Part shown: positions 19,069 to 58,609 of the stretch, piece by piece
How positions within the stretch are numbered: position 1 is the stretch's first letter
How the letters are laid out: every line of letters starts with the position of its first letter
Source of the DNA: Patescibacteria group bacterium
Lineage (GTDB): Bacteria > Patescibacteriota > Patescibacteriia > UBA9934
Length of the DNA: 64,000 nt
Assembly (NCBI GenBank): GCA_038064675.1
Contig: JBBTSM010000002.1
Coordinates: 6,507-70,506 of the forward strand
Direction: 5' to 3'
Notes under the pieces: model-generated
Database searches by the model: none
Seen by the model: only the letters and a program-made list of their open reading frames with translations
Told to the model about the DNA's origin: nothing
Position numbers and translations under genes: made by a program

Positions 19069-19201
19069 ATCGCTCTGTAGTGTAGCACTATGAATCGAAC
19101 GAGCAAGTTCGTTTTATGCACAGCACTTGAAATAGAACACACCCGCCGAGACGCAGGTACACGACGGGCGTGTTCCTTTGTCTCGTACGGGTGTACGAGT
19201 G

Positions 19202-19738
19202 CTACCGCTGCGGTTCGCCGCGATAGCTACGGCGGTGATCTTCCTCGCAGGACCGCGCCTCCGCCTCGCTGGCGCACGCGAAGGCGTAGCTATCGCCCCG
19301 CAGGTCGGTAGGGCCACCTCCGACTTTGACCCTGAACGGCGCGGGGTTGTTACCGCGGTAGAGGGAGACGAAGCCGAACTTGTCCGCCATCTCCTCACTG
19401 ACCGTGACCCAGTTCCTGCCGCATTCGACGATCCACGCCTTCGTCTCCTCGACGAGGGCGAGAGCGCCATCGCGGGTCTTGGTGCTGTAGTGCCCTTGCA
19501 ACCGCATGCCGTCCCCAGTCCTGATCTCGATGCGATAGATCTCCAACGGCGCGTACTGCCCGCCGCTGATCGAGAGGATCGCGGCGCTGACGATCTGCTT
19601 CTTGGAGCGAGGACAGGTGGCGGGCGGGTTCTCCATCATCAGGGTGAAGTGGTGGGTGTGTCCCTGAAAGAAGAAGAGATCGCCGATCAGATCGCTCTTG
19701 CTCGGTCCCGCGATGATGCGGAACGTTGTGGTAGCCAT
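19202..19738 (-). CDS. hypothetical protein in GC-rich patch
   Basis: The patch is about 62% GC against a 50% background. The minus-strand ORF has a balanced composition. The overlapping plus ORF is Arg/Ala/Leu-rich and looks antisense. Confidence 0.35.
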   Translation of the reverse strand: MATTTFRIIAGPSKSDLIGDLFFFQGHTHHFTLMMENPPATCPRSKKQIVSAAILSISGGQYAPLEIYRIEIRTGDGMRLQGHYSTKTRDGALALVEETKAWIVECGRNWVTVSEEMADKFGFVSLYRGNNPAPFRVKVGGGPTDLRGDSYAFACASEAEARSCEEDHRRSYRGEPQR

Positions 19739-19958
19739 AACGGCTCCTTCTGTGTTGAACACCTTCGTCGTTGAGAGTGAAGGTAAGCTCCGTTACGCCG
19801 CATCGCTGCCGCGCCACCTGACCATAACGGACAGGGATTTTCGAGCGTGTGCCCGTCGGCAGCCACGACTTTCGTCATGCTCACCGAAGGACACAGCTCC
19901 ACTATAACGTCATATTATACCAGAAAATGGATACTTTGTCAATAAAATATCTCGTAAA

Positions 19959-19978
19959 TACGGCTAGTATTAGCCGTA
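19959..19978. repeat. perfect inverted repeat TACGGCTA-gtat-TAGCCGTA just downstream of recombinase 2
   Basis: Read from the sequence. Confidence 0.35.
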
Positions 19979-19997
19979 TAATCTTCCGCACCTCTGC

Positions 19998-21665
19998 TTA
20001 TACAAATACCCGTGTTTCACCCCTTATTGGTAGTACTATACGCCCGCATATTGGGGTTTTCTTGCCTCCATTCCGATGGCATATAGCTGTTTTAGCTCTC
20101 CCACGAGCTGGTTCCAAAACTCTACCGATTGGCTCACCAAAAGCTTCTCCGTCGAATATGACGGGGATGTTTTTGTTATGGACGAATTCTTTGCAGAGAT
20201 AATCAAGCGGAGCATTGAGAATGGCCTTGTAAAGTTTGCCGTCGCGCACGATGAGGTCTTTGAAGACGATGGCGAGGATCTGACGCTTCAACGGCTCAGG
20301 AGCCCGTTTGTAGGCCTTAGGGAGATCACGAATGAACGCCACTGCTCGCTCCAGAATTTGAATGGCCGATTGGATCATTGTTTGGTTCGCCTCCAGCCGC
20401 GCTTTGCAGCGAGCCCGATCGGAAGAAACTTCTTCACGGATGGTTTCGTAAATTTCCTCACTGAGTTTATTTTCCAGATACTTGTTCACGAGCGCCCGCT
20501 CTTTAGCGTCCAGCTCTTCAATCTTTCGCGTAAGCTCCCGACGCTCTTTCGTCACGGACGTCTGTTCTCGCTCGTGGATTTCTTGCAGCTTCTTCTCAAT
20601 GCGCCCAACGATGCGTGCGGGCAAACGCACCACTTTCAACGCTTTCAAAACTTCGCCCTCCAGCTGGGTCGTTTCAACGTAGGACTGCGAGCAGAAGACG
20701 GGGTGACCTTCCCGTTTCTTGGAGCAGCGGTAATAAGAAATTACTCGACCCGAGGAAGTCGTCTGTTTTTCGTAAGTAATACCACCGCCACACTCCCCAC
20801 AAATCATAATCCCGCGAAGCAGAAAAGCGTTCTTTCGTTTCTTGCTGCGTCCATGCACTCGATCTTCCAAAGCAAACTGGACGCGCTGAAAAAGTTCTCG
20901 GGAAATGAGAGGCACGTGCGATCCCTTCGCTTCAACGCCATTCCAGCGGATGGAACCGATGTAGAAGGGATTTTTGAGCATGCGGCAGATAACCGAACCG
21001 GATAGCGGCTTATCGACACGCCCCTGCCGAATGCCCTGCGAGTAGAGCCACTTGGTCAACTCGATCGCTGTGTATTGTCCGGTCGCAAACATTTCAAAGA
21101 CCTTTACCGCAAGGTCGCGCGTCTTCGGATCGGGGGCGACATACTTTCTTTCGATGCCGTCGGAGTCGATCTCCTTCACGTTTTTGTAGCCAAATCCAGC
21201 TTTGGTATTCCAAAGTCCCTGCTGGGCACGCTGGTTCATGCCCTTGAGCACGTCTCGGCCAAGGTTGAGTGACTGGTACTCCGCCATTGCAGCAAGAATG
21301 CCCTCTGTGAATTTTCCCTCCGGTGTCTCGTCGATGTTTTCCGTGGCAGAAATGAGCTTGATCTTCTTTTTGCGGAGAGTTCCGACAATGGCCGCATGGT
21401 CGATGGTGTTACGCGCAAGACGGCTGACTTGGTGAACGTATACCGCGTCGATACCGCCCTGTCTGCAGCGATCTAATAGCGCCTGAAGACCCGGCCGAGC
21501 GTCAGTACGCGCAGATTCTCCCTCGTCACGAAATATGTGCCCAATCTCGTAGCCATCAGCGGCGGCACGCGTTTTGCAGACCTCCTCCTGCGCGGGCAAG
21601 GAAAATCCCCGCTCGGCTTGCCGGTCGGTTGAAACACGTAAATAGAGAAGTGCTATTTTACTCAT
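19998..21665 (-). CDS. large serine recombinase (second copy, different sequence)
   Basis: It has ALLYLRVSTDRQ...GESART... and is 555 aa. Confidence 0.85.
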   Translation of the reverse strand: MSKIALLYLRVSTDRQAERGFSLPAQEEVCKTRAAADGYEIGHIFRDEGESARTDARPGLQALLDRCRQGGIDAVYVHQVSRLARNTIDHAAIVGTLRKKKIKLISATENIDETPEGKFTEGILAAMAEYQSLNLGRDVLKGMNQRAQQGLWNTKAGFGYKNVKEIDSDGIERKYVAPDPKTRDLAVKVFEMFATGQYTAIELTKWLYSQGIRQGRVDKPLSGSVICRMLKNPFYIGSIRWNGVEAKGSHVPLISRELFQRVQFALEDRVHGRSKKRKNAFLLRGIMICGECGGGITYEKQTTSSGRVISYYRCSKKREGHPVFCSQSYVETTQLEGEVLKALKVVRLPARIVGRIEKKLQEIHEREQTSVTKERRELTRKIEELDAKERALVNKYLENKLSEEIYETIREEVSSDRARCKARLEANQTMIQSAIQILERAVAFIRDLPKAYKRAPEPLKRQILAIVFKDLIVRDGKLYKAILNAPLDYLCKEFVHNKNIPVIFDGEAFGEPIGRVLEPARGRAKTAICHRNGGKKTPICGRIVLPIRGETRVFV

Positions 21666-21714
21666 ACGTTATTGGGTGAATTATGCGGTTATTTTTGAAT
21701 TCACGAAAGCCACG

Positions 21715-21840
21715 TTTTTCACTGCGGAAATTCCCGAGAAATCACTGCATAATCTCCGGCCATTTCACTCCAAAAATCACTGGAAGAATGTCCTTTCGAC
21801 AAAAAGAAAATCGCATAAGTAAGCCATGAAAATCACTTTT
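21715..21840. repeat. iteron-like direct repeats (A/T)AATCACT(G) x3 plus two TTTCACT variants upstream of recombinase 2
   Basis: AAATCACTG is at 21739. AAATCACTG is at 21774. AAATCACTT is at 21829. TTTCACTG is at 21718. TTTCACTC is at 21763. Confidence 0.4.
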
Positions 21841-21865
21841 CCCCTTATCCAACTTTCTGGAGTTT

Positions 21866-22459
21866 TCAATCAGGAGTTTCTGCAGTGCCCGCAGAAAAGT
21901 TTCCGCAGTCCCGAGTGTCGGTTATTGCGGCACGTCGTGCCTCGGCTCCTATGAGATTTTTATAGGTGAATTTTTCATCATCCCCGCCTCCATATGCGAC
22001 CCATCGCTTCTGATGGGGGACAAAAAGAATCACCTTGCCGTCAGGGAGAGCTTTTGCCGGATCCTTTCCAAAACGTAAACCTCCTTTGTTTACATATTTC
22101 TTATTCACTACATCTTGTTTGTATTCGCCCTGCCGAAGGGGAGGTACTCGCTCACCCGAATACCCCCCTTCGCCCTGCCGAATGGGTGTATGAGGAAAAA
22201 CATATCGGTTCACATGACCGGCTGTACGGGCCACACTCAGCCACCCTGCCTTTTCTAGCTTTATGACTGACTCGTAGAGGCATGTGAGGCCAATTTTATT
22301 CTTCGTCTTCTTGCGGAGTGCTGCATTGGAAGGATTGCATTGCCCAGTTCTGCCATTACGAAAAGATTGCAAAACCCCATATACCCAGTAATCTCGAAAG
22401 CTGAGATCTGGGTCGAGGGCTATGCCGTGAGGGTTCATTGAAAATCCTTTATTCTCCAT
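21866..22459 (-). CDS. hypothetical protein (island cargo)
   Basis: The ORF is 197 aa. No motif was recognised. Confidence 0.35.
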   Translation of the reverse strand: MENKGFSMNPHGIALDPDLSFRDYWVYGVLQSFRNGRTGQCNPSNAALRKKTKNKIGLTCLYESVIKLEKAGWLSVARTAGHVNRYVFPHTPIRQGEGGYSGERVPPLRQGEYKQDVVNKKYVNKGGLRFGKDPAKALPDGKVILFVPHQKRWVAYGGGDDEKFTYKNLIGAEARRAAITDTRDCGNFSAGTAETPD

Positions 22460-22469
22460 ATTCTTCTGC

Positions 22470-22742
22470 TCAAATTCCGTCGTAGAGGATGGACTTCAAC
22501 CGCTTAATCGCATTTACAAATGCAGGAGCGTGAACCAGCGCGTCGTGCCCAAGAGTAAACTCATTAGTCAGACGTCTTACATCGCCATCGTCCGCAAAAA
22601 TAAACGTCGCTCGGCTACCGTCTCGCTCGCAGTTCACGATGCGCTTACCGTGGGCAAGGAGATATGCCGCGAGGTAAAAATTACTCGTTGGAAACTCCAC
22701 GATCTCTGTTTTCATACGTATTCTGATCCGGCTGCCGTGCAA
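22470..22742 (-). CDS. small hypothetical protein (island cargo)
   Basis: The ORF is about 80-90 aa. Its true start is probably MKTEIVEF. Confidence 0.35.
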   Translation of the reverse strand: MHGSRIRIRMKTEIVEFPTSNFYLAAYLLAHGKRIVNCERDGSRATFIFADDGDVRRLTNEFTLGHDALVHAPAFVNAIKRLKSILYDGI

Positions 22743-22820
22743 TCAAATAAAGCGCCTCGGCGAGTTGCTCGATGAGCTGGTCTTCGGCGCTTTGTTGTGC
22801 GGCATCTGGCTTGAACATAA

Positions 22821-22844
22821 GGGCTACTCAACAAAGAGTAGCCC
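22821..22844 (-). terminator. hairpin downstream of the 22881..23576 gene
   Basis: GGGCTACTC-aacaaa-GAGTAGCCC. Confidence 0.4.
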
Positions 22845-22880
22845 TATGCCTCCTATGACTGGTTTCACCAATTCACGAAA

Positions 22881-23576
22881 TTAGTGAAACCGCTTTTTTG
22901 CACGATGTTTTTGCAGCTTTATGCGTTTGACCTCGGCATCCTCCTTTGCCTTTGAAGGAAATTCGTCGTCTACGTTCATCTGGGCGGCGATGTCGCGATT
23001 GGTTTTGATCATTGCTATCGGTTCGCCCGTATCGCTGTCGATGCCGTTGATGACGCCCTTTTGATGATGTAGCTTGAGAACTTTGGCATTTTCTTCGGCA
23101 TTGGGTCGACTTCTTGGGCTTTTATGCCCCATAGCTTCGTGAATGTCTTTTACGAGCTTATCACGCAGGCGCTTCTCTCCAGTTGCGAGTGGCATATCTT
23201 CAGCGTGTTCAATACGTTTTGAACCGGCGGTGATAGTGACGGAAAAGTTTCCCGGAATATGGCGGATCTTATTTAGCACGAGAAAATACCGCACTGCATC
23301 GTGATAGTTTTCAGCGAGCTTTAACTTCTCCAGCATGACGCGGATAGCGCATTTCAGTTCCATGTGCCGACGCGCTACATCGGCCATTGGGATTCCGTCT
23401 GGGCGAAGCCAAACGGCAGCGGCTGGTGCCGTTTCAAAACCCTCAGCGGGTATGCCAATACTCGTGCGCAGCTTCTGTGCAATCGCATCTCCATTACAGT
23501 AAGCCAACCGCTCAACAAAACGTTGGCGGTTTATTTCCGTGGCCTTTTCAGCCAATTCTAAATCCTTATTCTTCAT
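22881..23576 (-). CDS. hypothetical protein (island cargo)
   Basis: The ORF is 231 aa. It has a basic C-terminus. Confidence 0.4.
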   Translation of the reverse strand: MKNKDLELAEKATEINRQRFVERLAYCNGDAIAQKLRTSIGIPAEGFETAPAAAVWLRPDGIPMADVARRHMELKCAIRVMLEKLKLAENYHDAVRYFLVLNKIRHIPGNFSVTITAGSKRIEHAEDMPLATGEKRLRDKLVKDIHEAMGHKSPRSRPNAEENAKVLKLHHQKGVINGIDSDTGEPIAMIKTNRDIAAQMNVDDEFPSKAKEDAEVKRIKLQKHRAKKRFH

Positions 23577-23661
23577 ATTCTCGCCCTTGCTTACCAGTGT
23601 AATTCCTGTAAACTATCCTTACAATCTGCCTAAACCGGCTTCGGCCGGCATGGCACTAAAT

Positions 23662-23813
23662 CCACGCAAATAGAGACGGTCTCGTGACCGGCCCATTTGC
23701 GTGGTTCGTATTCGAAAGAATACGAGGCGGCTCCGAAAGGTGTCCGTCGCCGGCTCGCGGAACCTTTTGTGTTCCGCGACCCCAAGAAAATAATTCGTAA
23801 AACCACGCAAATA
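23662..23813. promoter_or_regulatory. three copies of CACGCAAAT(A) motif (two direct, one inverted) in divergent intergenic region
   Basis: CCACGCAAATA is at 23662. The inverted copy ATTTGCGTGG is at 23695. CCACGCAAATA is at 23803 and overlaps the ATG of the downstream ORF. Confidence 0.4.
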
Positions 23814-24313
23814 TGTCAGACGCAACGAGACCGATCTACCGAATGTGGTGGTTCTGGGTCGCGGCAGTGTTCGTTTTTCTAATGATCGTCGGCGCGATGT
23901 CGGGTGGATCCACGCCAACCAACGACAGCACGTCACAAGAGGCCACAACCCCGATAGTGAACGGCGAGCATTTGCTCGGGTTGACGATTGACGAGGTGCG
24001 CGAGGAGATGGGAATCCCTGATGACGAGAGCACCATGGACCCGACCGCGCAGCAGCTAGCGCTTGGTGGCACGAGTACGTGGACGAACCAGTACACGGTC
24101 AGCGATCACACTATCGTGCTCGATTTCGATATGAAGTCGCGGCAGGTCACCGGCTTCTTCATTGGCACCGACGAGAAAGACGGGATTACGCGCGACTGGA
24201 AGGCACTGCTCCCGCTTAGTGGTCTTTCTGAGGACGCGCAGGGATACTCCATCAAGCCAATCGGTGCGCTCAAGAGTCCCGGCTTCTACACCGGAGTGCA
24301 GGCGACGGAATAG
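23813..24313 (+). CDS. membrane-anchored hypothetical protein
   Basis: One N-terminal TM (WWFWVAAVFVFLMIVGA) is followed by a soluble domain. Confidence 0.4.
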   Translation: MSDATRPIYRMWWFWVAAVFVFLMIVGAMSGGSTPTNDSTSQEATTPIVNGEHLLGLTIDEVREEMGIPDDESTMDPTAQQLALGGTSTWTNQYTVSDHTIVLDFDMKSRQVTGFFIGTDEKDGITRDWKALLPLSGLSEDAQGYSIKPIGALKSPGFYTGVQATE

Positions 24314-24333
24314 TGAAAACACTGCTTAAATCC

Positions 24334-25767
24334 CTACATGATCAAGTGATCAAATTTGGCTTTTAACTTTTCAAATAATGCCTGATCTCCACCCTGTTGC
24401 TTAGCTTTAACAAGCTCAAAAACATCCTCATCATCAAGCGGAATCATAAACCCGCGGTCATCAACCGCAGTATCCTTGCAACGCTGCAAAAGGAGAGTTT
24501 TGTTTTCAATTTTTCTACAAACAAGAAAACCAAACTTTCCCCGACTAGGACCAAACCGGCCAGACAGTTGGTCGATCTCTGGATTGGCCGGATCGTCCGA
24601 ATAGTTTTTACATTCAACAAAAACCATTTGAGCGGGGTAGTGACTACCAAGCCAGTGAAAGAATCCGTTACTCATCACATTAACATAGCTGATGTCGATT
24701 CTCTTTCTACCGCTGTGGAGCTCGTGCTGAACATGTGGGTTGGTGAGTGCAGGATAAAATAAGGCCGAAAGCAAAGCTTCTATGGCTTTTTCGTACCGAT
24801 CTGCTTCCGCATTGCCGACCTGTGTCTGTTGTACCTCGCCGATTAGAGCATCCCAGTCCGGCAAAACTGATCCTTCAATAGCGGCAAGCTCAGAATGACT
24901 CAATGGAGGCGAAATATGTCGCTTCACTTCTTCTCGATACCGTTTCAGGATCGCGGGGTTCCTCAGAGTTTCCCGCGCGTTTACTGCCTTGCCAAACCCA
25001 TATTTTTCTTTTACCGATTTTTTGGTGACTCTTACACCACCCTTTTTAAGTACCTGTACCAATGAAGAGTTGGCAGAGATTTCTTCACGTTGCAGGTGTG
25101 GAATGATGTAATCGCGAAAATACTTATCAGGATTGTAGTTCAAGTCCTGACGTACAATCCCTTTTGGCACAAGAAGAAGCCGACCATCGTTCACCGTTGG
25201 TAGCCGAGCGTATTCAACTTTCCATGAACGACTCGCAGGATCCCACAATGGGCCAGAAACCACGTCGTCCGTAAGGGGTATTCCGTAAGTTTCGCACATT
25301 TCCTGTGTGTAGCGAATCAGGAAAGGCCTAATAAGGTTCGTTGTTATGTCGGAGACGATGTCAACGTCAATTCCAGGTACCATCAAAACGGTTTCTTCGA
25401 GATCTTCCAATAACCCTGTTTTAGCCGCTTCACTTTTGCTTAAAGCATCCCAAACAGTTCCCGCTAAAAGGTTGCCCATCCCTCGGCCGTGCGAAACTCC
25501 AACCGAAAGCCCAAGATGTGTTTCATTAGGTTCCCCCAGTGAAGAAAGCAAGCGCCTTGCGTTTTCATGATCACCGCTCTGGATAGAAGAAATGACGGCC
25601 TTAAAAAAGTTCTGGATGATGGAGATGCACTCGCTTGCCCATACCGAGGAGAGGAGCTTCAAAGAAAGCGGGTCAACAAAAAGAGGGGTGTCATTGACGA
25701 CATCCACGTCCACGAAATCAAGGGTTGGTTGACTTCGACCTAAAGAAAAATGCTCAGAAATTCTCAT
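24334..25767 (-). CDS. PD-(D/E)xK nuclease-fold protein (C-terminal), unknown N-terminal domain; defence candidate
   Basis: The C-terminal GRKRIDISYVN...QMVFVECKNYS...EIDQLSGR matches the D...(E)xK core arrangement of restriction-endonuclease-like folds. Confidence 0.45.
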   Translation of the reverse strand: MRISEHFSLGRSQPTLDFVDVDVVNDTPLFVDPLSLKLLSSVWASECISIIQNFFKAVISSIQSGDHENARRLLSSLGEPNETHLGLSVGVSHGRGMGNLLAGTVWDALSKSEAAKTGLLEDLEETVLMVPGIDVDIVSDITTNLIRPFLIRYTQEMCETYGIPLTDDVVSGPLWDPASRSWKVEYARLPTVNDGRLLLVPKGIVRQDLNYNPDKYFRDYIIPHLQREEISANSSLVQVLKKGGVRVTKKSVKEKYGFGKAVNARETLRNPAILKRYREEVKRHISPPLSHSELAAIEGSVLPDWDALIGEVQQTQVGNAEADRYEKAIEALLSALFYPALTNPHVQHELHSGRKRIDISYVNVMSNGFFHWLGSHYPAQMVFVECKNYSDDPANPEIDQLSGRFGPSRGKFGFLVCRKIENKTLLLQRCKDTAVDDRGFMIPLDDEDVFELVKAKQQGGDQALFEKLKAKFDHLIM

Positions 25768-25814
25768 GCTTATTCTTAGTTCGGCGAACCTAGTTTTTTG
25801 GGAATCCGCAGTCC

Positions 25815-26648
25815 CTACGCTTGCGGAGGTTGGTACCCCAGCTTATAGAGCGCTCCATTGAGCGACCCCTTATGCCCCGCAATTTTTTCTTGCCAAGCTT
25901 TTATCAGGGAATCATCTAAAGATTTCATGAACTCAGTGCGGATTTGTTCGTTCCCCCACTCGACATAATTGAGAATCTTTTCTTCAGTTAGATTGGAAAA
26001 GATCTTTGATCTCGCGTAGACAAAGAGTGGCCCATCGTTCGCGGAAATCGCTCCTCTCGCGCTATTGAAAGTTCTAATTTTGCCTCGTAGCTCTAGGTCT
26101 ATTTGGCTCCCTTTGGCTAGCGCCTCGTCAGCAATCTTTTTGAACTCCAAAAGGCGATAGAGAAGCATCGAGTCGCTGGGCTCTGCGGCCTTTGTGATGT
26201 TCTCAATATGCTTCAGTACAAGATTATAAACTCGGTTAATCGGCGTTCCGTGAAGATAGAAGGTGGCCCCTTCACTTTCGTCCATGACCCATGGCGTGGC
26301 TCCTTTGCTCAACTCCATCTGGAATTCTGGCTCGAAGACGGACTTAATCCAGCTATGTGCTTCTCTAGCGGCTCTAATTCTTTCGACGTTAACGGCGAAG
26401 AGATGTTGAATAAGAATCATTGCCAAGGAGACGAACAGGGTGACGAATCCGGCACCAATCAACTCGATAATCAAGGATTCTCGAAAGGAGCTTGAAAGTG
26501 ACGTCCCTCTTCCAAGGAAGTAGACGATTGTCGTTAAAAACAAAACGAATCCAACGATCAGTAAAGTGATTTTTGTTTTCTCTCCAACTTTCATAGCAGC
26601 TTTACTCAAAACTGCCTTTATTCTCTCATAAAATCTAGGAAATTTCAA
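25815..26648 (-). CDS. 2-TM membrane protein with cytoplasmic C-terminal domain (partner of the nuclease-fold gene)
   Basis: Two hydrophobic helices lie within residues 26-82. It is co-oriented with and 47 bp upstream of 24334..25767. Confidence 0.45.
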   Translation of the reverse strand: MKFPRFYERIKAVLSKAAMKVGEKTKITLLIVGFVLFLTTIVYFLGRGTSLSSSFRESLIIELIGAGFVTLFVSLAMILIQHLFAVNVERIRAAREAHSWIKSVFEPEFQMELSKGATPWVMDESEGATFYLHGTPINRVYNLVLKHIENITKAAEPSDSMLLYRLLEFKKIADEALAKGSQIDLELRGKIRTFNSARGAISANDGPLFVYARSKIFSNLTEEKILNYVEWGNEQIRTEFMKSLDDSLIKAWQEKIAGHKGSLNGALYKLGYQPPQA

Positions 26649-26790
26649 TCATGGGTGCGTTGTGTTAACAACAAACCCCGCGTCGAGAACGACACGAGCG
26701 CGCCGTCCTCGAGGGGAGCGGGGCTTGTCGTCTCACGCGGGGCGAGAGAAGGGTACGCGTTGTCACACTGCACCCGAGGTGCGAGGCCGA

Positions 26791-27312
26791 TCACCACACG
26801 TTCGCGTCTCGCATGGCGGCGATCTGGTCGCGGAGGCCTTCGTTGTTGCTGGCCGCGATGATGCGCTCGACCAGCTCGTCGTCCATCAGGCCGAGCTCCC
26901 TCGCCGCGAGCACGCACACGGCCTCGTCCTCCTCCTCGCTGAACCCGGAGAAGGAGAAGATCATGTCGTCCGCGAGGGCGATCGCGCCGCCGTAGGCGCG
27001 GTCACGCTTGTCGGGCGCGGTCACGTCGCGGGTCTGGAAGCTGGAGACGTGGTCGGGGTGGCGCGACAGGCGCTCGGCCTTCTCGAGGGCGTGGTGGGCG
27101 TACTTGCGCACCTGCTCCCCGGAGGGGCGACGCACCTCGAAGCAGATGACGCACGGGATCTCCCCGCGTCGCCAGTAGGCGAAGAAGCCGCCCGTACGGG
27201 TACGGTCACGGATCGCGACGAGAGGGCCGATGCGTCCTGCGGCGTGGAGAACGGCGAGATCGAGCCGTCCTGCGGCTTCGGAACGGGAACAGGCGCGGAG
27301 AGGGAGTTCCAA
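26791..27312 (-). CDS. hypothetical protein in GC-rich patch
   Basis: The patch is about 65% GC. The minus ORF is more protein-like than the overlapping plus ORFs. Confidence 0.35.
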   Translation of the reverse strand: MELPLRACSRSEAAGRLDLAVLHAAGRIGPLVAIRDRTRTGGFFAYWRRGEIPCVICFEVRRPSGEQVRKYAHHALEKAERLSRHPDHVSSFQTRDVTAPDKRDRAYGGAIALADDMIFSFSGFSEEEDEAVCVLAARELGLMDDELVERIIAASNNEGLRDQIAAMRDANVW

Positions 27313-27499
27313 GAGTCCTCCAGAATCGGAAGAGGGTGGATGCCATTCGCCCCAAGACAGGGCTATTGCGAGCGCAAGTTAGCAAAAAGTCGCCGTTTTG
27401 TCTACACGACGATAGCAAGGGAATCAAAATTAAACCGCAGCAGCAGGAGCTTTTCCTTGTTTTTCAGGAGGTATTCGGTTAACGATGCTTTAGGTTCAC

Positions 27500-30498: not shown

Positions 30499-30660
30499 TA
30501 GGGTGATATTATGTTCACCGAATGGAGTTATCGACTAGGACTTTTCCATTTTAGACCAGTTTCGATGAACGATGAGAAATCTTCCGAGGTGTACTTCGTG
30601 GTACATTGAGGAAGATTTCGATATCGTGAGTCGAAAATGGGCAAAATGGGGAAGTCCTAT

Positions 30661-31377
30661 ATGAGAACAGCGCGTTTTTTTGTCCCCGCAGATTGGATTG
30701 CGCAAAGCGCGCAGGCCTTTTCGATTCCGGCGGGTTCGATACACAAACAGATTGTTTCCGTGCTTCGGATGAAGCCATCGGATCATATCAGTCTGTGCCC
30801 GAACGACGGAACAGAAATTGATTGTGAAATTACGGAGATTACCAAGGCAGCAATCCTCGGAAAGATTGTTGGATCTCGAACGGCCGAGCCGTTGCGCCCA
30901 TCAATCACTGTGTGTGCGGCGATCACGAAGCGCGACACGTTCGAGTGGACGTTGCAGAAATGCACAGAGATTGGTGCGACGGCGTTTATTCCGATGATCA
31001 CCGACCGCGTGATTAAAAAGACGAAGGAGGTTCCGGCGCGATGGATGGATATTCTTCGTGAGGCGAGCGAGCAGTCTGGCCGGACGACACTTCCAATGAT
31101 CCACGATCCGTCATCGCTGAAGTCGGCAATTGAACAGACGGCGAAGTTCGATCGAATCGTTCTTCACGAGTCGGTTGGAAAGGTTGCGCCAATGCCAAAG
31201 GTTCGCGTGATGGACCACGTTGCGCTATTTATCGGACCAGAAGGGGGATTTTCCGATACCGAGATCGAAGAGCTGCGATCGGCGGGATCGACGATCGTTC
31301 AGATCGGCGACCTGGTGATGCGCGCCGAAACCGCGGCCACGGTTGCAACGGCGCTTATTCGATTTGGGGCAATATAG
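30661..31377 (+). CDS. rsmE: 16S rRNA (uracil1498-N3)-methyltransferase RsmE
   Basis: It has an N-terminal PUA-like domain plus a SPOUT domain (GPEGGFS). The start is chosen at MRTARFFVP. Confidence 0.8.
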   Translation: MRTARFFVPADWIAQSAQAFSIPAGSIHKQIVSVLRMKPSDHISLCPNDGTEIDCEITEITKAAILGKIVGSRTAEPLRPSITVCAAITKRDTFEWTLQKCTEIGATAFIPMITDRVIKKTKEVPARWMDILREASEQSGRTTLPMIHDPSSLKSAIEQTAKFDRIVLHESVGKVAPMPKVRVMDHVALFIGPEGGFSDTEIEELRSAGSTIVQIGDLVMRAETAATVATALIRFGAI

Positions 31378-31460
31378 TCAGAAAGTTGTTCTTTTTTGGA
31401 ATTTTTGTTAGGATTTTCTGTCCCGAGCATCTCGCTCGGTGGCAGCCACACAGGTGATTC

Positions 31461-32627
31461 GTGGATTCTCCTCTCTCCATCGCCGTTCGCCGCGGTCTCG
31501 TTCGCGAGCTTGTCCAATATCCGCTCTCCTACGAGGAGATCGGGCAGGTGCTCGGCTTCGATGTCAGTACGATTGCGAACGACATCAGTGCGCTCCGGCG
31601 GGCAGGCGATCCGATCGCTCGCTCGAAGCCGTCGTACGCCGTACGACTCGCGGTCTACGTGCAGACCCTCAACGCGGAATCGCTGGATCTGAGTCCGGAG
31701 ATCACGATCGAGGTGCAAAAAGCGCTCCATTTCGGCCTCAACCTCGACGGGTTCGAAGTGGTGACGCGTGCCATGATCGATGGCATCAACATGGCCCGTG
31801 CGCCGAAGATTCCGCCCCATCTCTGGAACACCCAGCGGCTGGTGCACGCCATCTTCGGCTATGCCGCGCCCATCGACCAGTTCCTTTTCCGGCCGTGGGA
31901 TCCGCGTTTCAACGGACGCAAGATCGATCTTGCGGACGAAATGGCACGGCAGTGGTATCCACGGATGCTCTCGAGCGGCGTCGATCTCGTGAGCACGGTG
32001 AAGAATCATGTGGATCTCGCCCGCCAGTTCGTGGCGTTCCACGTGTACGAAGGGCAAGTGATGGAGCACCATATCGCTCCCATCAATCCGGATCGTCCGG
32101 CCAGCTGCCGCGCGGACGTGGTGGTGGGCAACGCCGTCAAGGAGCGGCTGGACAATGCGCTGGCCGCGCTGAGCAGTCGTTATCGTGAAGTGCTGCGCCT
32201 TCGTTACCCGGAAGACGGGAGTGAGGGGGAAGAGCTGTCCAAGATCGGGAAGCGCATGGAGCTCAGCCGCGAGCGCATCCGGCAGATCGAAGCCGAGGCT
32301 CTGAAAGAGATGCGAACGTTCCTCGTGGCGGACGACGTTGACATCCATCCGGTGTCCACGTTCGCCGCCGTGGTTGCGAATGTTCGGAATCTGGCCAGGC
32401 GCTACACCCCCGAGAATCCTGCCGATCTCTACCTTACCGGTTCCATCGCCGAACTCAATCTCTCGCCTCGTGCACAGGCGGTGATCGAGGAGCTCGGTTT
32501 GAGTCGGGTCTTTGAACTTCGCGGGGAAGGCTCTGGAAATATTCTCCATGCGGTGAACGGGGGGCGGAGTGTGGCCGATGAAGTGAAGTCGGCGCTCGAT
32601 AGGATCGAGGCTCGCTCGAAATGCTGA
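31461..32627 (+). CDS. sigma-70 region-4-containing protein with C-terminal HhH (alpha-CTD-like) segment; atypical architecture; GC-rich insert
   Basis: The region 4 HTH is LSSRYREVLRLRY...EELSKIGKRMELSRERIRQIEAEAL. The C-terminal segment is LSPRAQAVIEELGLSRVFEL. The region is about 60% GC. Confidence 0.5.
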   Translation: MDSPLSIAVRRGLVRELVQYPLSYEEIGQVLGFDVSTIANDISALRRAGDPIARSKPSYAVRLAVYVQTLNAESLDLSPEITIEVQKALHFGLNLDGFEVVTRAMIDGINMARAPKIPPHLWNTQRLVHAIFGYAAPIDQFLFRPWDPRFNGRKIDLADEMARQWYPRMLSSGVDLVSTVKNHVDLARQFVAFHVYEGQVMEHHIAPINPDRPASCRADVVVGNAVKERLDNALAALSSRYREVLRLRYPEDGSEGEELSKIGKRMELSRERIRQIEAEALKEMRTFLVADDVDIHPVSTFAAVVANVRNLARRYTPENPADLYLTGSIAELNLSPRAQAVIEELGLSRVFELRGEGSGNILHAVNGGRSVADEVKSALDRIEARSKC

Positions 32628-32687
32628 TCTCTAGCTTCGACGAGATCTGATCGGCAACAGAACGGGTTCTGGGTACAACGCCCGCGT

Positions 32688-32720
32688 GGGCCGCCTTCAG
32701 GGGCGGCCCACTTTCTTTTC
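32688..32720 (+). terminator. rho-independent terminator after sigma-like gene
   Basis: GGGCCGCC-ttcag-GGGCGGCCC is followed by ACTTTCTTTTC. Confidence 0.5.
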
Positions 32721-32741
32721 GAATGATTTCTTAAACCATAG

Positions 32742-32825
32742 GAGCGATTTGGCGATCTCGTGATGCGCGCTGAGACTGTGGCCATCATCGGCACGGCGCT
32801 GATCCGATTCTCCACAATAGGCTAG
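32742..32825 (+). pseudogene. duplicated, diverged 3' fragment of rsmE (ERFGDLVMRAETVAIIGTALIRFSTIG*)
   Basis: It is about 75% nt and 70% aa identical to the rsmE C-terminus at 31306..31377 (IGDLVMRAETAATVATALIRFGAI*). It is a stand-alone in-frame remnant. Confidence 0.55.
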
Positions 32826-32827
32826 GG

Positions 32828-38247: not shown

Positions 38248-38345
38248 CAATGTTTCGAAATGATGACAGAAAAAAGCCCAAAAAGCAAACGAGCCGCCCT
38301 TGCGTGGGGCGACCCGTCGTGCCTGATGAATGTGTGCTCTGGTTG

Positions 38346-41347: not shown

Positions 41348-41453
41348 AGTGTGGAAATTGATACGATGGAAGCAATCCCCGGTGACTGTTGTTTATACTC
41401 GTAGCCTTGAGGCGTGGAGGGATCGCCCAGGTGGTCTGCGTAGCATATTTTTT

Positions 41454-41801
41454 ATGCTTGATACACAGGATATTCAGGTACTTCGTGAGATCTTCGGTGA
41501 GATGCTTGGGAAGAATAATGTGATTCTTCGAGACGAAATGTTTGCTGTTCGAGATGAGATGATCGGTCGGATAGACGGCGCTCGAGATGAGATGATCGGC
41601 AGAATTGACGGTACTCGTGACGAGATGACGGGTCGAATTGATGGGATGAAAGGCTGGATGGAGACATTACTCCAAAAGGAACTTCGTTCTGTTCGCGACG
41701 ACATCATCGAAGTCATTAATGACGGTGTACTGCCGCAGATTGATCGATTGAATATTCGTGTGACGCGGTTGGAGCGTATGCAGCGACAGGGATCGTTTTA
41801 A
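41454..41801 (+). CDS. small coiled-coil protein with 3 x 33-bp in-frame tandem repeat (RDEM(I/T)GRIDG(A/T))
   Basis: The nucleotide repeats cgagatgagatgatcggtcggatagacggcgct / cgagatgagatgatcggcagaattgacggtact / cgtgacgagatgacgggtcgaattgatgggatg run from about 41545 to 41643. Confidence 0.45.
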   Translation: MLDTQDIQVLREIFGEMLGKNNVILRDEMFAVRDEMIGRIDGARDEMIGRIDGTRDEMTGRIDGMKGWMETLLQKELRSVRDDIIEVINDGVLPQIDRLNIRVTRLERMQRQGSF

Positions 41802-41817
41802 TTTCCTTCTTCGATTT

Positions 41818-41856
41818 GAAGACCCACCCAACGCAATGGGTGGGTCTTCGCGTTTT
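41818..41856 (+). terminator. rho-independent terminator
   Basis: GAAGACCCACCC-aacgcaa-TGGGTGGGTCTTC is followed by GCGTTTT. Confidence 0.55.
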
Positions 41857-46470: not shown

Positions 46471-46551
46471 AGGCGGCCCGCTGGGTCGTCTCAAACAAAA
46501 CACGTCGCGCAGTGCGGCGTGTTTTTGTATCATGGTAAAATGTGCCCAAGT

Positions 46552-49341: not shown

Positions 49342-49402
49342 AGACGCATGACGGCCGGCTTCCCGAGGGATGCCGGCCGTTCGTGTTGGTGACGTGTTCG
49401 TC

Positions 49403-50704
49403 CTACGCCGCGCTGAGCGCGTGATCGAAGCGCCGCTCGATTTCTCGCAGCCCGTCGGCTCTGTCGTCTCCCCGGTGGGCGACGCCGCGAATGAGATCCG
49501 TGATTTCACCCATCTCGCGGAGATGGTAGGGCTGGACCCAGGGGGCGCAGTCCATCATCCATTGCAGGCCCGCCTCACGGAAGCGTTGCAGCGCGTCAAT
49601 GTCTCCGCTGTTCACCATCTGGATGGCCGCCGAGAGTTGGTCGCGGAGCGCGACGGCCTTCAGGAACGCAGCCGCCCGACGAGCATTGCTCGCGATGCGG
49701 TTGTACTGCCTCGCTTCGAAGCCGTCGATCATTTCCTGTACTGCGGCGTGCGCGAATGCCGTCCAGGGAAGGATCGGGTTGATGAAGCTCCGTTTGAGCT
49801 CGTCGCGGTACCCCTTGAGTCGCTTGACGAAGTTGGTCACGCGCTGCTCGCTGACACCCAGCGGAAGCTCGGTGGTGATACCGAGCCACCACGACTTCTT
49901 GTCGTCGAGCTCTGTCGCCATCCGGCTACAGCGCTGGACCACGCGACCGATCCACTCCTCGATGTCGCGGCCACTGTACGTGACGGCCTCGAGCACATCG
50001 TGCTGGTCCGCGGTGAGCGCTTCCGCGCGGCGTTGAATGGCACGAACGATGAGCACGTAGCGGTACACATTCCGGCGGTTGATGGAATCGAGGGGATTCT
50101 CCATGCTCGCGAGGAATGCGCGGATCTCCTTAGCAAGCTTCGCGTTGGAATGCACGAAATTCTTGAGGAAGCGGATGTTCTCGCGGTGCGTCTCTGCATC
50201 GATCCGACGCTTGAGGCGGGTCTTCAGTGCGAACCCAAGCTTTTCGTCGCTCATCACGACGAGCGTGCGGAGAAGGACGATTTCGTTCTTCACTCGGCTT
50301 GCCGCACGACGCATGGCGCGGTTCACGCCGAACACCCCTGCTTCGAAGCCGGAGACGATCGGAAGGCGCTTCAGCTTGGTGGGATCGTCGGCTCCGTAGA
50401 TTTTGCTGCCCGGGGCGAAGATCACTTCGCGATCCACCTTCGTGAACCGCTGGAACACCTGGAAGCTCTGGGGGCCGCTCGTCATGCCCCACACCGATCC
50501 TTCGGAGAGACACGCGGCTTCGCCTTCAATGATGCGTCCGATGTGGCCGGAACCGTCCGGAGTGATGACGCCCTCGTGATTGACGAAGAGCATCAGTGCG
50601 AGCACGTGGACGAGGGGGAGGGTCGGGATGGGCTTGTCGCCAAGGGGGCTGATCACGATATTTTCCGGTCTGAGTGTGATACTGGCACGGGTGTGCCGGC
50701 GCAA
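49403..50704 (-). CDS. hypothetical protein, GC-rich patch
   Basis: The patch is about 62% GC. The ORF is 433 aa. A GC hairpin plus a GTTGGTGACGT box lie downstream at about 49350..49400. The start is uncertain. Confidence 0.4.
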   Translation of the reverse strand: MRRHTRASITLRPENIVISPLGDKPIPTLPLVHVLALMLFVNHEGVITPDGSGHIGRIIEGEAACLSEGSVWGMTSGPQSFQVFQRFTKVDREVIFAPGSKIYGADDPTKLKRLPIVSGFEAGVFGVNRAMRRAASRVKNEIVLLRTLVVMSDEKLGFALKTRLKRRIDAETHRENIRFLKNFVHSNAKLAKEIRAFLASMENPLDSINRRNVYRYVLIVRAIQRRAEALTADQHDVLEAVTYSGRDIEEWIGRVVQRCSRMATELDDKKSWWLGITTELPLGVSEQRVTNFVKRLKGYRDELKRSFINPILPWTAFAHAAVQEMIDGFEARQYNRIASNARRAAAFLKAVALRDQLSAAIQMVNSGDIDALQRFREAGLQWMMDCAPWVQPYHLREMGEITDLIRGVAHRGDDRADGLREIERRFDHALSAA

Positions 50705-51634: not shown

Positions 51635-51635
51635 T

Positions 51636-52911: not shown

Positions 52912-52913
52912 GA

Positions 52914-55709: not shown

Positions 55710-55730
55710 AGATCGATGTGCCGATTCTTG

Positions 55731-56288: not shown

Positions 56289-56333
56289 AGGTTGTTTTCT
56301 ATTCTGTAAGTATGTCATACACTGTGCACATCT

Positions 56334-56918: not shown

Positions 56919-56926
56919 ACGAACGA

Positions 56927-56952
56927 CCGCGGCTCCTGCGTAGGAGCCGCGG
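56927..56952. terminator. GC hairpin CCGCGGCTCC-tgcgta-GGAGCCGCGG (first of four family members; shared by adk and cassette A)
   Basis: Read from the sequence. Related copies are at 57273..57297, 57811..57835 and 58229..58254. Confidence 0.5.
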
Positions 56953-56992
56953 CGCGTTGGCGACGTAGGCAGAGTGCCGAGATGTGGCGCGG

Positions 56993-57202
56993 TCAGTAGT
57001 CACCATCGTCGTCTTCGTCCCCGTCTGGGTTTTCGTTATCGAGATCGTCTTGGATGATCCACCGGTCTTGGCTGCCCGAATTCTCCGGTGCAACGTCGGT
57101 ACCGGCCGACAGAACCCAGATGAACGGGGCTTGAGGCTCGGCGGGACGAGCCCTGCCGCTACAGGTGGGACACGTTTCTTTTGAGCATGTACAGCGGATC
57201 AT
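56993..57202 (-). CDS. small Cys-motif acidic protein, cassette A (69 aa)
   Basis: The sequence is MIRCTCSKETCPTCSGRARPAEPQ...DGDEDDDGDY. An RBS AAGGAGG lies 8 nt upstream. It is a paralogue of cassette C. Confidence 0.5.
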   Translation of the reverse strand: MIRCTCSKETCPTCSGRARPAEPQAPFIWVLSAGTDVAPENSGSQDRWIIQDDLDNENPDGDEDDDGDY

Positions 57203-57238
57203 CCAAGGGTGCCTCCTTTGTGCCTGTACACAATGTAA

Positions 57239-57301
57239 GGCTTTTGAAAATTTTCCGCAATAAATGCAGCCGCCGCGACTCCTGCGTGGAGCCGCGGCGC
57301 G
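57239..57301. repeat. 63-bp perfect direct repeat, copy 1 (promoter-like TTGCGG-N17-TACATT region + terminator hairpin)
   Basis: It is identical to 57777..57839. Confidence 0.6.
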
Positions 57302-57345
57302 TGTTCGGGGAATCGTGTGTGGTGCGCTTGGTGTCAGAAGCGCCC

Positions 57346-57744
57346 TCAGGGATCGAGCGGCCCTCCGGGCCCGCGGCCGAGCCCTCGGGTCTGTCGTGCG
57401 CCTTCCACCGCTGCCCGACCGAGCTCGGGTCCAGTCATCTTGAACACGCGATCGAATGCCCCGCGCGTTTCCGGTCGTTGCTGATCGTTCACGATCGCTT
57501 CGGCCGTGGTTTCTTCGAACACGGCGTCGGCACCGGCCTTGGACGCGATGTCCGCGCCACGCTCGGCGACCCGCGCGTCCCAGTCGGCGAAGCAGGCAGC
57601 TTCGTCTCTCGGATCGATCCACGGAACCTCAGCGTCGGGCGGCAGAGGCGGACCGTGCATCGTCCGGAGCTCGACGGGCTTGTTGGGGTGAAGCGGACAG
57701 ATCCGTCCGGTGTGTTGTCCGCAGACGCAGGTATTCTCGGCCAT
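57346..57744 (-). CDS. small Cys-motif protein, cassette B (132 aa)
   Basis: The sequence is MAENTCVCGQHTGRICPLHP.... An RBS GAGGA is present. Confidence 0.45.
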   Translation of the reverse strand: MAENTCVCGQHTGRICPLHPNKPVELRTMHGPPLPPDAEVPWIDPRDEAACFADWDARVAERGADIASKAGADAVFEETTAEAIVNDQQRPETRGAFDRVFKMTGPELGRAAVEGARQTRGLGRGPGGPLDP

Positions 57745-57776
57745 CGGCAATCCTCACGGGTGTGCTTGAAATGTAC

Positions 57777-57839
57777 GGCTTTTGAAAATTTTCCGCAATA
57801 AATGCAGCCGCCGCGACTCCTGCGTGGAGCCGCGGCGCG
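57777..57839. repeat. 63-bp perfect direct repeat, copy 2
   Basis: It is identical to 57239..57301. Confidence 0.6.
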
Positions 57840-57871
57840 TTGGCGACGTAGGGTGCCGAGATGTGGAGCGG

Positions 57872-58090
57872 TCAGCAGTCACCTTCATCGTCATCCCCAT
57901 CTGGGCCTCCGCCAATCACCTCGTCATCGATGTTGTCGCCCCACCAGTCTTTGTTGCCCGAATCCTCCGGTGCAACGTCGGTACCGACCGACGGAACCTG
58001 GCCGAGCGACGTTTGAGGCCTGGCGGGACGAGCCCTGTCACTGCAGGTGGGACACGTTTCTTGTGAACAGCGACAAAGAATGTCTTCCAT
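57872..58090 (-). CDS. small Cys-motif acidic protein, cassette C (72 aa), paralogue of A
   Basis: The sequence is MEDILCRCSQETCPTCSDRARPARPQ...GTDVAPEDSG...DGDDDEGDC. Confidence 0.5.
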   Translation of the reverse strand: MEDILCRCSQETCPTCSDRARPARPQTSLGQVPSVGTDVAPEDSGNKDWWGDNIDDEVIGGGPDGDDDEGDC

Positions 58091-58286
58091 GAATGCCTCG
58101 GTGTGCGTATTTAATGTACGGCTCCGGAGTATTTTACGCAATTCCGAACGAACGTTTGAACATGAGCATTTCCACAGATATCATCCGATCGGATGGTATT
58201 TTCGGAAGAAAAGAACACGAAACGAACAACCGCGACCCCTTGCGTGGAGCCGCGGCGCGTGTTCGGTGATTTGGTCGTCGTCGCCT

Positions 58287-58526
58287 TCAGGAAGAGCCGG
58301 TGTGCGCTTCGCACGGAGAGCCGGGTCGGCAGTGCGGGCAGTCTGGCGCCCGCGTGGCGGTCGCTCGGCGTTCGGAGTCGGGGACTTGTCCAGTCATTCG
58401 ACCCCAAAGTGCCTCGTATTGTCCATCGTCGAGAGCCTCCTTCGGATTGGGCAGTTCCGCCCTTGCTCGAGGGTATCCCATGATCGGTACTCTTGTTTTG
58501 TGATTGTTTTCGTGTTCGGAAACCAA
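58287..58526 (-). CDS. small protein with C-terminal CPHC..C motif, cassette D
   Basis: It has ...APDCPHCRPGSPCEAHTGSS. The start is uncertain (TTG at 58526 or ATG giving 64 aa). Confidence 0.35.
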   Translation of the reverse strand: MVSEHENNHKTRVPIMGYPRARAELPNPKEALDDGQYEALWGRMTGQVPDSERRATATRAPDCPHCRPGSPCEAHTGSS

Positions 58527-58609
58527 AAGAAGGGTAGCTCCCGGGAAAGATTATCGCAATCCTCAGTCATTTCTTGCCCCAAAGCCGTTCGTCGAGTACA
58601 CTCTTGGCC

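Follow-up and report, generated by a model that had tools for sequence, protein, structure and literature searches.

GC-Rich Accessory Gene Patches in an Uhrbacteria-Like Patescibacterial Genome: Variable, Lineage-Restricted, and Probably Not the Signature of a Common Donor

Atypical base composition is routinely read as a sign of recent foreign origin, and bacterial accessory DNA tends to be richer in AT than the core. Here, we examine a case in which it is the accessory genes of a reduced genome from the candidate phyla radiation (CPR) that are GC-richer. The DNA analyzed, hereafter the window, is a stretch of 64,000 nucleotides (nt) from a Patescibacteria group bacterium (GenBank assembly GCA_038064675.1, contig JBBTSM010000002.1, positions 6,507 to 70,506, forward strand). 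It carries six GC-rich patches, which encode the proteins p19, p26, p31sig, p38, and p49 and an array of four small genes (p57a, p57c, p57b, and p58). A preliminary description of the window, made from its letters alone, proposed that the patches came from a common high-GC donor, such as the host of a reduced-genome symbiont, and that a shared terminator style pointed to that donor.

The window is part of a metagenome-assembled genome (MAG) from an Uhrbacteria-like, reduced-genome CPR bacterium of the Patescibacteria. FtsH is 97% and 95% identical to the FtsH proteins of two MAGs, one of which is labelled Candidatus Uhrbacteria, and its remaining matches are all from Patescibacteria. The only database copy of a patch protein, p49, is annotated [quoted passage not shown] The surmise of a reduced-genome symbiont was right, because both the FtsH matches and this annotation are patescibacterial. 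A search of the E. coli genome with 5 kb of the window gave no match, and exact-sequence contig look-ups with p38 and the NCBI p49 protein found nothing on record.

Six GC-Rich Patches and Their Genes

GC content, measured in 500-nt windows against a mean of 0.521, is 0.58 at 19.0-19.5 kb, 0.57-0.62 at 26.5-27.5 kb, 0.61-0.62 at 31.5-32.5 kb, 0.64 and 0.59 at 38.5-39.5 kb, 0.63 and 0.61 at 49.5-50.5 kb, and 0.61-0.64 at 57-58 kb. The sliding values (0.57-0.64 versus a mean of 0.52) place the six segments where the preliminary description had them, and all six patches are 58-64% GC, compared to a background of 52%. Four lie between chromosomal housekeeping genes, and two (p19 and p26) lie in a prophage-like region (Table 1).

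Both strands of the GC-rich stretches carry long open reading frames (ORFs). The coding strand was assigned by the codon-position pattern, in which the GC content of third positions (GC3) exceeds that of first (GC1) and second (GC2) positions in the order GC3 > GC1 > GC2, and by the sigma-factor domain and protein conservation in relatives. Five of the six patches are encoded on the minus strand, as the text of the preliminary description had it; its title, which placed all of them there, was wrong, with p31sig lying on the plus strand. This five-to-one split is not significant alone. Dual coding was considered, given the long antisense ORFs that span several patches, and rejected because such ORFs are expected at a sense GC3 of ~0.8 and are not conserved in the lower-GC homolog at L081 (loci of relatives are given L numbers).

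Scans of the patch genes with Pfam, NCBIfam, PHROG, and PADLOC gave no matches except the sigma-factor matches of p31sig, and there was no match to defence models. The genes had been called unrecognizable as to lineage, which is correct, sigma-like p31sig being the one exception. The GC-rich ORFans form separate small families, each bound to its own slot, and none was found in two slots. A search for flanking direct repeats at every patch and at the inserts of relatives found them at p31sig only.

Table 1. Features of the window that bear on the GC-rich patches, in order of position
Feature	Position	Strand	Description
tRNA-Glu	15895-15969		Overlapped by the stop of large serine recombinase gene 1
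Large serine recombinase gene 1	15929..17449		phrog_95 integrase, 1e-65
Prophage-like or integrative region	15929..27450	.	Serine recombinases, phrog_27295, DUF5659; holds p19 and p26
Hairpin, 3' of p19 stop	19137..19162	-	T-rich tail
p19	19202..19762	-	GC-rich ORFan, GC 0.63, GC3 0.83; no family matches; likely ATG at 19738, preceded by GAAGGAG
p19 leader	19908-19738	-	171 nt, GC-rich, structured; fold z = -2.96 versus shuffles
p19 promoter match, sigma-70 type	19914..19942	-	TTGACA-17-(TG)TATAAT, 12/12 consensus positions
Large serine recombinase gene 2	19998..21665		phrog_95 integrase, 6e-100; adjoins p19
DUF5659 protein	22470..22742		Within prophage-like region
LOOT RNA (Rfam RF03000)	23627-23744	+	Full length, 73.6 bits (gathering score 46.4)
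166-aa ORF	23813-24313	+	GC 0.58, GC3 0.74
Phage-family protein	24334..25767		Full-length match to phrog_27295, 5e-138
Hairpin after p26	26677..26698	-	Terminator-like
p26	26791..27312	-	GC-rich ORFan, GC 0.69, GC3 0.88; right edge of prophage-like region; start codon uncertain; no family matches
rsmE	30637..31377	
Direct repeat, left copy	31306..31364	+	Functional 3' end of rsmE
p31sig	31461..32627	+	Divergent RpoD-like sigma-factor gene; N-terminal helix-turn-helix, sigma region 4, weak C-terminus resembling the alpha C-terminal domain
Strong intrinsic terminator after p31sig	32686..32711	+	11-bp stem, 9 GC pairs, then TTTCTTTT
Direct repeat, right copy	32751..32809	+	Remnant of rsmE 3' end, after p31sig unit, just before next gene
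ftsH	36376..38250	-	
Intrinsic terminator of p38	38288..38318	-	12-bp stem, CACGCAA loop, T-rich tail; orthologous hairpin at L002 9933-9963
p38	38346..39500	-	GC-rich ORFan upstream of ftsH, GC3 0.77; likely start M27 at 39422
o41	41319..41801	+	160 aa, GC 0.48
Control hairpin	41817..41850	+	13-14-bp stem, ACGCAA loop; ortholog at L002 6872-6906
DnaJ-like gene	46519-49341	+	940 aa, beside gyrA
GC-stem hairpin after p49	49352..49379	-	No ACGCA loop, weak T tail; box ACGTCACCAAC at 49395-49385
p49	49403..50704	-	GC-rich, 433-aa ORF; NCBI annotation 417 aa, start 50656
p57a terminator hairpin	56926..56953	-	Loop TACGCA
Small-gene array	56993..58481	-	Four small genes between adk and infB
p57a	56993..57202	-	69 aa, CxC...CPTC cysteines, acidic tail; 61% identical to p57b
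71-nt terminator-plus-promoter module, copy 1	57232..57302	-	Hairpin 57299-57271, loop ACGCA, then TTGCGG-17-TACATT
p57c	57346..57744	-	132 aa, CVCG...CP(L/I)HP motif; ortholog in L083 Adk-IF2 slot
71-nt terminator-plus-promoter module, copy 2	57770..57840	-	Hairpin 57837-57809; 99% identical to copy 1
p57b	57872..58090	-	72-aa paralog of p57a
p58 terminator hairpin	58229..58256	-	Loop ACGCAA
p58	58287..58481	-	64 aa, C-terminal CPHC...CxxH knuckle
infB start as listed	58574-58610		TTG start, 689-aa ORF

Composition and Codon Usage of the Patch Genes

The five larger patch genes have a GC3 of 0.74-0.88, compared to 0.54 (standard deviation [SD], 0.045) in 39 core ORFs. Because this is 4-7 SD above the core, while GC1 and GC2 are raised by only ~0.08-0.09, the GC excess is mainly synonymous, and amino acid composition alone, which the preliminary description had named as a possible explanation, does not account for it. 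The codon table shows that the synonymous shift is mostly from T to C at third positions, with A at third positions halved. The patch proteins are enriched in Arg, Ala, and Pro and depleted in Lys, Ile, and Thr. High expression with translational selection is unlikely as the cause of the GC richness and was rejected, as the genes for HU, L32, S1, and IF-2 are without such bias.

Several of these traits are what one would expect if all patches had been transferred recently from one high-GC donor that also supplied their terminators: codon usage contrasts strongly with that of the core, and the amino acid shifts are those of GC-rich organisms. In their tetranucleotide signature, the patches deviate only mildly, correlating with the core at r = 0.48, slightly below the 0.62 ± 0.06 of core subsets, which a donor would also explain. 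However, when the patch set is split in two, the halves correlate at only 0.28, less than the patches do with the core. The patch genes share the best-hit taxonomy of the core genes, a result that refutes the donor idea, whereas the clear difference in codon usage does not speak against it.

The Patches as a Variable Part of the Genome

The close relatives at L001 and L002 are collinear with the window over 28-49 kb at 76-90% nucleotide identity, and the alignments break at the patches. Window positions 31352-33453 correspond to ~190 bp in L001 and ~650 bp in L002, and positions 38313-39499 correspond to ~400 bp and ~740 bp, respectively. Moreover, both relatives have GC-rich genes at places where the window lacks any. 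One is a GC-rich gene for a HAD-like hydrolase directly after ftsH in both (46% identity between the two), and another is a 181-amino-acid (aa) GC-rich ORFan that is present in L001 and not in the window. Therefore, these breaks, the relatives' own GC-rich genes, and the differing content of the adk-infB slot show that the patches are the variable part of the genome, several being present, absent, or replaced in close relatives. Such presence-absence differences would also fit a donor.

The window comes from a MAG, and its compositional steps are sharp, so one might ask whether GC-rich reads of other organisms were stitched into the contig. We regard the chance of this as negligible: the same gene families occur at the same junctions in independent assemblies (NCBI, ENA, JGI, and Logan), and a single contig at L092 spans both a p38 homolog and ftsH.

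Base composition shifts fast within the Uhrbacteria-like clade. At L091, L081, and L084, core proteins are 84-95% identical to those of the window, yet genomic GC differs by ~8-10 points and GC3 by ~15 points. At L091, for instance, RNase III is 95% and NusB 89% identical to the window's proteins, while neighbour GC3 is 0.37, compared to 0.52 in the window.

A Persistent GC Excess in the p49 Family

The p49 family provides the best-documented case. A word-indexed search with p49 found only p49 itself. A full HMMER search of 1.84 billion representative proteins gave 19 matches, 18 of them below 1e-10, and no homolog outside the clade. Homologous DNA was compared at nine loci (L081, L082, L083, L084, and L087-L091). 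In every locus that is long enough (L081, L083, L084, and L087-L091), p49 occupies the same syntenic place, convergent with the gene for a large DnaJ-like protein downstream of gyrA and divergent from rpmF-nusB-rnc (L32/NusB/RNase III). An AlphaFold model of p49 (predicted local distance difference test [pLDDT], 81.5; predicted template modelling score [pTM], 0.76) shows a beta domain at the N-terminus and a long helical one, and a comparison with the PDB gave no fold match.

Across seven genomes, GC3 in the p49 family is 0.60-0.82, while that of the neighbours is 0.37-0.56, an offset of +0.22 to +0.28. The two rise and fall together (r = 0.98; slope, 1.19; logit offset, 0.9-1.3), so that p49 composition is not independent of the recipient. 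The excess is thus a maintained, gene-specific property, amounting to about +1 logit, that moves with host GC and is not a fading donor signature, because a recent import from a single donor would not follow its recipients and an old import would have lost its excess. A recent donor import of p49 is excluded.

Protein turnover in this slot is fast. GyrA is 85-99% identical among p49-bearing genomes, whereas p49 is only 29-43% identical. This means that alleles are being replaced at a fixed site instead of slowly drifting apart, because L087 and L089, with GyrA proteins 99% identical, have p49 proteins that are 40% identical.

The DnaJ-like gene beside gyrA is a second hypervariable slot directly beside that of p49. 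Its product, which shows faint matches to DnaJ and RPT, has counterparts in L001, L002, L081, and L087-L089. It is as hypervariable as p49, with 22-57% identity where GyrA is 85-99% identical, but its GC3 is 0.45-0.50; therefore, variability alone does not explain the GC excess.

This neighbour bears directly on GC-biased gene conversion, by which the patch genes would be recombination hot spots whose GC3 is raised by GC-biased mismatch repair. Allele replacement is evident, the excess is greatest at synonymous sites, its logit offset is constant over host GC3, and recombining genes have higher GC3 in many bacteria (PMC4450053). Raised GC3 and evidence of recombination are, accordingly, both found here. 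A tract-wide effect regardless of gene is not: the adjoining large gene is replaced equally often, yet its GC3 is below average, and the GC boundaries match the ends of the ORFs rather than the conserved flanks, where crossovers would occur. We consider this explanation decidedly unlikely.

Other Slot-Resident Genes

p38 is flanked by rpsA and ftsH. Its protein sequence had only three matches (99, 65, and 59% identity), all in the same context and none outside the clade. The L092 homolog (57-59% identity; GC3, 0.84) lies directly upstream of an ftsH gene with a GC3 of 0.56. The L002 homolog, in the same slot, has 30% identity over the C-terminal half and a GC content of 0.62-0.63, and the L001 slot (~400 bp) has no detectable p38 homolog. 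A structure model of p38 was too poor for use (pLDDT, 45).

The slot between adk and infB is filled differently from genome to genome: it holds four small GC-rich genes in the window, a single GC-rich gene of 132 aa at L083, a pair of AT-rich genes at L084, and fpg at L085. The array proteins (64-132 aa) carry CxC...CxxC or CxxC...CxxH cysteine clusters, and two have strongly acidic tails. The genes for p57a and p57b are paralogous, with 84-87% nucleotide identity. The p57c ortholog at L083 (~30% identity) retains the CVCG...CP(I/L)HP motif, the promoter-like site TTGCGG-17-TACATT, and a related hairpin; sites of the form TTGCGN-17-TACATT precede three of the array genes as well as this ortholog.

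At L083 (positions 9534-9610, minus strand), the TGA codon of the p57c ortholog lies inside a tandem 9-nt duplication (CCGGACTGA/CCGGACTGC), and past it the frame runs for 20 more codons that contain a CPNC...CxxH knuckle like the C-terminus of p58. This arrangement suggests an ancestral two-knuckle protein that was later split or truncated.

Like an integron cassette array, this segment consists of four short ORFs in the same orientation, each followed by a conserved imperfect palindrome, so the hairpins could in principle be attC sites instead of terminators. We find this scarcely plausible, as the hairpins are only 28-30 nt long, lack the complementary R''/R' core sites (GTTRRRY / RYYYAAC) of attC, and are followed by T-rich, terminator-type tails. 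Also unlike promoterless cassettes, each ORF has its own promoter-like site; no tyrosine integrase was seen among the scanned ORFs of the window, and the p57c unit is orthologous at L083.

In relatives, too, the p38 and p57c families keep to these slots and are rich in GC, contrary to the proposal of a common donor. From 2-4 genomes, we infer that p38 and p57c, as well as the relatives' HAD-like gene, have a maintained GC excess, as p49 does. Recent donor import of p38 and p57c is unlikely, and for p49, p38, and p57c the single-donor explanation is largely refuted.

A Sigma-Factor-Like Gene Inserted at the End of rsmE

p31sig is flanked by rsmE and pilB. It matches Sigma70_r4 (PF04545) at 1.2e-14, TIGR02937 above cutoff, and the sigma models of NCBIfam. 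Residues 25-285 align to Listeria RpoD with 28% identity by tblastn, and there is no Pfam region-2 match. Its GC3 is 0.74.

The gene is absent from L001 and L002. At L002, rsmE is followed directly by the gene that in the window lies beyond p31sig. The repeat copies that bracket p31sig are 59 nt long, 76% identical, and 1445 nt apart. This clean footprint marks the p31sig unit as a discrete 1.45 kb insertion into the 3' end of rsmE. No recombinase lies on the insert; its integration may have taken place in trans or by homology-facilitated illegitimate recombination after DNA uptake.

A Prophage-Like Region with p19 and p26

The region at ~15.9-27.5 kb, which besides the phage-related genes of Table 1 contains a weak replication-initiator match, may represent a single integrated phage-like element or two, with p19 and p26 plausibly as moron-like cargo. 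The backbone of the element is ~50% GC or lower, whereas p19 and p26 are 63-69% GC. No promoter-like site was identified upstream of p26.

The structured p19 leader could be a cis-regulatory RNA; it has no Rfam match. An Rfam match to CrfA at 19127-19269 was taken as chance, since its 29 bits fall under the gathering score of 38.

The LOOT RNA of this region sits between a 231-aa ORF and the GC3-rich 166-aa ORF listed in Table 1. The latter, which shows weak PHROG matches (8.7e-06) to superinfection-exclusion (Sie-like) families, may be a seventh, smaller GC3-rich unit that is not among the six described before.

The phage-like setting raises the question of whether all patches are cargo of mobile elements, such as phage morons or mobilizable islets, drawn from a GC-richer pool within the clade and delivered repeatedly to the same sites. 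Two serine integrases and the match to phrog_27295 speak for such cargo at p19 and p26, as does the target-duplication footprint at p31sig. Terminator hairpins accompany all units and promoter-like sites most of them, which is how morons are defined (PMC3594210). Against it stand the GC content of the phage-like backbone, the lack of PHROG matches to any patch gene, and scans of IMG/VR contigs with a p49 alignment, p31sig, p38, and p19, which found no relatives. Also, the families are slot specific, none being found in a second slot, and p49 follows its host in GC3. A GC-richer mobile pool fits p19, p26, and p31sig, and not the host tracking of p49. As an account of all six patches, we rate it as unlikely.

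Hairpins and Promoter-Like Sites

A GC-stem hairpin lies within ~30-100 nt of the stop codon of every patch gene, in most cases with a T-rich tail; the U-tract is weak at the 49.35 kb hairpin and in both 71-nt modules (GCTGCATTTATT). The preliminary description had reported six such hairpins with a common ACGCA loop and a recurrent box after the stem. The hairpins are where it placed them, but the ACGCA/ACGCAA loop occurs in five of the six and not at 49.35 kb. The box, ACGTC(G/A)CCAAC in reverse complement, does recur, three times versus 0.09 expected; however, two of the three copies are in one locally duplicated segment. Other strong terminators in the window have other loops.

The hairpins are best read as ordinary intrinsic terminators native to the lineage, and they would act as such in the cell. 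Four of the six belong to the single tandem array at 57-58 kb, with its 99% identical 71-nt modules. The gene before the control hairpin, o41, is variable and not rich in GC. For the p38 hairpin, an orthologous one exists at L002, even though the gene itself retains only 30% identity there. Related hairpins follow gyrA at L001 (TACGCA loop) and the p57c ortholog at L083 (TACGCCAA loop), while long-stem hairpins of the ACGCA type are nearly absent from ~1.2 Mb of more distant Patescibacteria loci. The likeness among the hairpins thus probably reflects recent local duplication in the array plus shared terminator ancestry within the clade. Because this likeness comes from duplication and from a native style that also follows genes that are not GC-rich, the hairpins say nothing about a donor.

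Promoter-like sites match the consensus at 9 of 12 positions for both p38 and p49. Together with the full-consensus site of p19 and the array motif, they would give most units a promoter of their own.

The proposal of one high-GC donor with a shared terminator dialect is, then, not supported. The p49 family occurs at one syntenic site in related CPR genomes, neither p49 (by the full HMMER search) nor p38 has a homolog outside the clade, there are no viral matches, and the hairpins of p38 and o41 have orthologs in a relative. We consider a recent transfer of all patches from a single donor very unlikely.

Three Kinds of Patch

On balance, the patches probably are the flexible, lineage-restricted accessory part of an Uhrbacteria-like CPR genome, comprise three kinds, and owe their GC content to something other than a donor. 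They would be short, mostly single-gene units, each with a terminator hairpin and most with a promoter-like site, each set between conserved housekeeping genes or within a phage-like element that has integrated. The first kind, p19 and p26, would be moron-like cargo of the prophage-like element. The second, p31sig, is a discrete insertion bracketed by the duplicated end of rsmE. The third kind, p38, p49, and the p57/p58 array, would be slot-resident hypervariable genes whose alleles are exchanged or change extremely rapidly while the flanking genes remain 85-99% identical. The GC3 excess may be sustained by selection or by biased repair in the patch genes.

The traits by which recent islands are commonly recognized are distributed unevenly among the patches. 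Composition and codon usage are unlike the core, but p49 and p38 have no homologs in a donor lineage. Although p31sig is absent from both close relatives and p38 from L001, p49 is present in nine genomes, p38 at L002 and L092, and p57c at L083. Traces of mobility are limited to the rsmE-end repeat at p31sig and the serine recombinases near p19, with none at p38, p49, or the 57-58 kb array.

Several points weigh against this account of the patches as native accessory genes of three kinds. The persistence of the GC3 excess across genomes is well documented for p49 only, the record for p38, p57c, and the HAD-like gene covering 2-4 genomes. The DnaJ-like neighbour is equally hypervariable and low in GC3, and the tetranucleotides of the patches correlate with the core somewhat less than core subsets do. 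The origin of p19, p26, and p31sig is less certain than that of the other three patches, and a foreign origin is possible for them. The promoters are consensus matches whose counts do not exceed those in shuffles, and p31sig, which is sigma-like, is the sole patch gene with a recognizable function.

Extreme variability between near-identical genomes, apparently autonomous units, and the phage-like setting of two patches suggest that the genes take part in conflicts or interact with phages or host cells, functions that would favour diversification. Candidates for such roles include the divergent sigma factor, the cysteine-knuckle proteins with acidic tails, and the confidently modelled ~430-aa protein without a known structural relative.

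A bolder claim, which we hold to be possible though doubtful, is that a localized and persistent GC-favouring force acts on hypervariable, clade-restricted accessory genes, adding ~+1 logit, or ~+25 GC3 points, and ending at gene borders; as part of the same claim, this force would be constant over a background GC3 of 0.37-0.56. It could be a very strong, gene-targeted form of biased repair or conversion, or it could be selection on DNA or mRNA, for example, for transcript stability or a distinct codon set. If true, this would mean that a bacterium can mark or maintain genes of conflict or accessory function by unusual means.

Comparison with Known Systems

Flexible or hypervariable islets are usually AT-richer than the core. 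The patches resemble such islets, including surface-antigen and defence loci, in having flanks with 85-99% protein identity around contents with 29-43%, in replacement between near-identical genomes (L087 and L089), and in their ORFan content. Unlike them, the patches are 10-12 points GC-richer, with GC3 persistently higher by 0.22-0.28, and no defence or surface-protein families were detected in them.

Phage morons, which are found inserted among the genes of a phage, are independent units with their own promoter and terminator and an atypical composition (PMC3594210). The patch units are likewise mostly single genes with their own terminator hairpin and, in most cases, a promoter-like site, as far as sequence can tell; they differ from their neighbours in composition, they lie between conserved genes, and two of them are in a prophage-like element. 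In contrast to morons, four of the six lie between housekeeping genes (rsmE/pilB, rpsA/ftsH, gyrA-side/rpmF, and adk/infB), p31sig among them not being between phage genes. Moreover, their families stay at one slot across relatives and have no PHROG match.

In groundwater Patescibacteria, islands, prophages, and individually transferred genes have been described, with most exchange taking place within Patescibacteria (PMC12455944). The clade-restricted homologs found here agree with that picture. Small GC-rich single-gene units with a persistent GC3 offset were not described there, and, unlike those islands, only one patch here shows an integration footprint. Gene conversion offers a further parallel in that its effect, too, is strongest at synonymous sites (PMC4450053), and it differs in that the adjoining, equally recombining gene is unaffected here.

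Genomic islands, within-phylum exchange, and morons having already been described (PMC12455944, PMC3594210), the patches alone do not amount to a novel type of system. What remains unusual is that their synonymous GC excess persists, stops at gene borders, and follows the composition of the host. At least one family, p49, holds such an excess at one slot across genomes of differing GC despite fast protein turnover. Calls of horizontal gene transfer or of donors that are based on composition can therefore be wrong in CPR genomes. The patches also provide a testable case for what maintains gene-specific base composition in bacteria, be it biased conversion or selection.

Other Features of the Window

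The o41 protein, whose gene precedes the control hairpin, contains short tandem repeats like DEMIGRIDG. The L002 version is 60% identical, L001 has none, and distant homologs occur at a different site, after leuS, in L083 and L084. Finally, the listed infB ORF probably exceeds the true gene by 12 codons, most of its orthologs being 677 aa.

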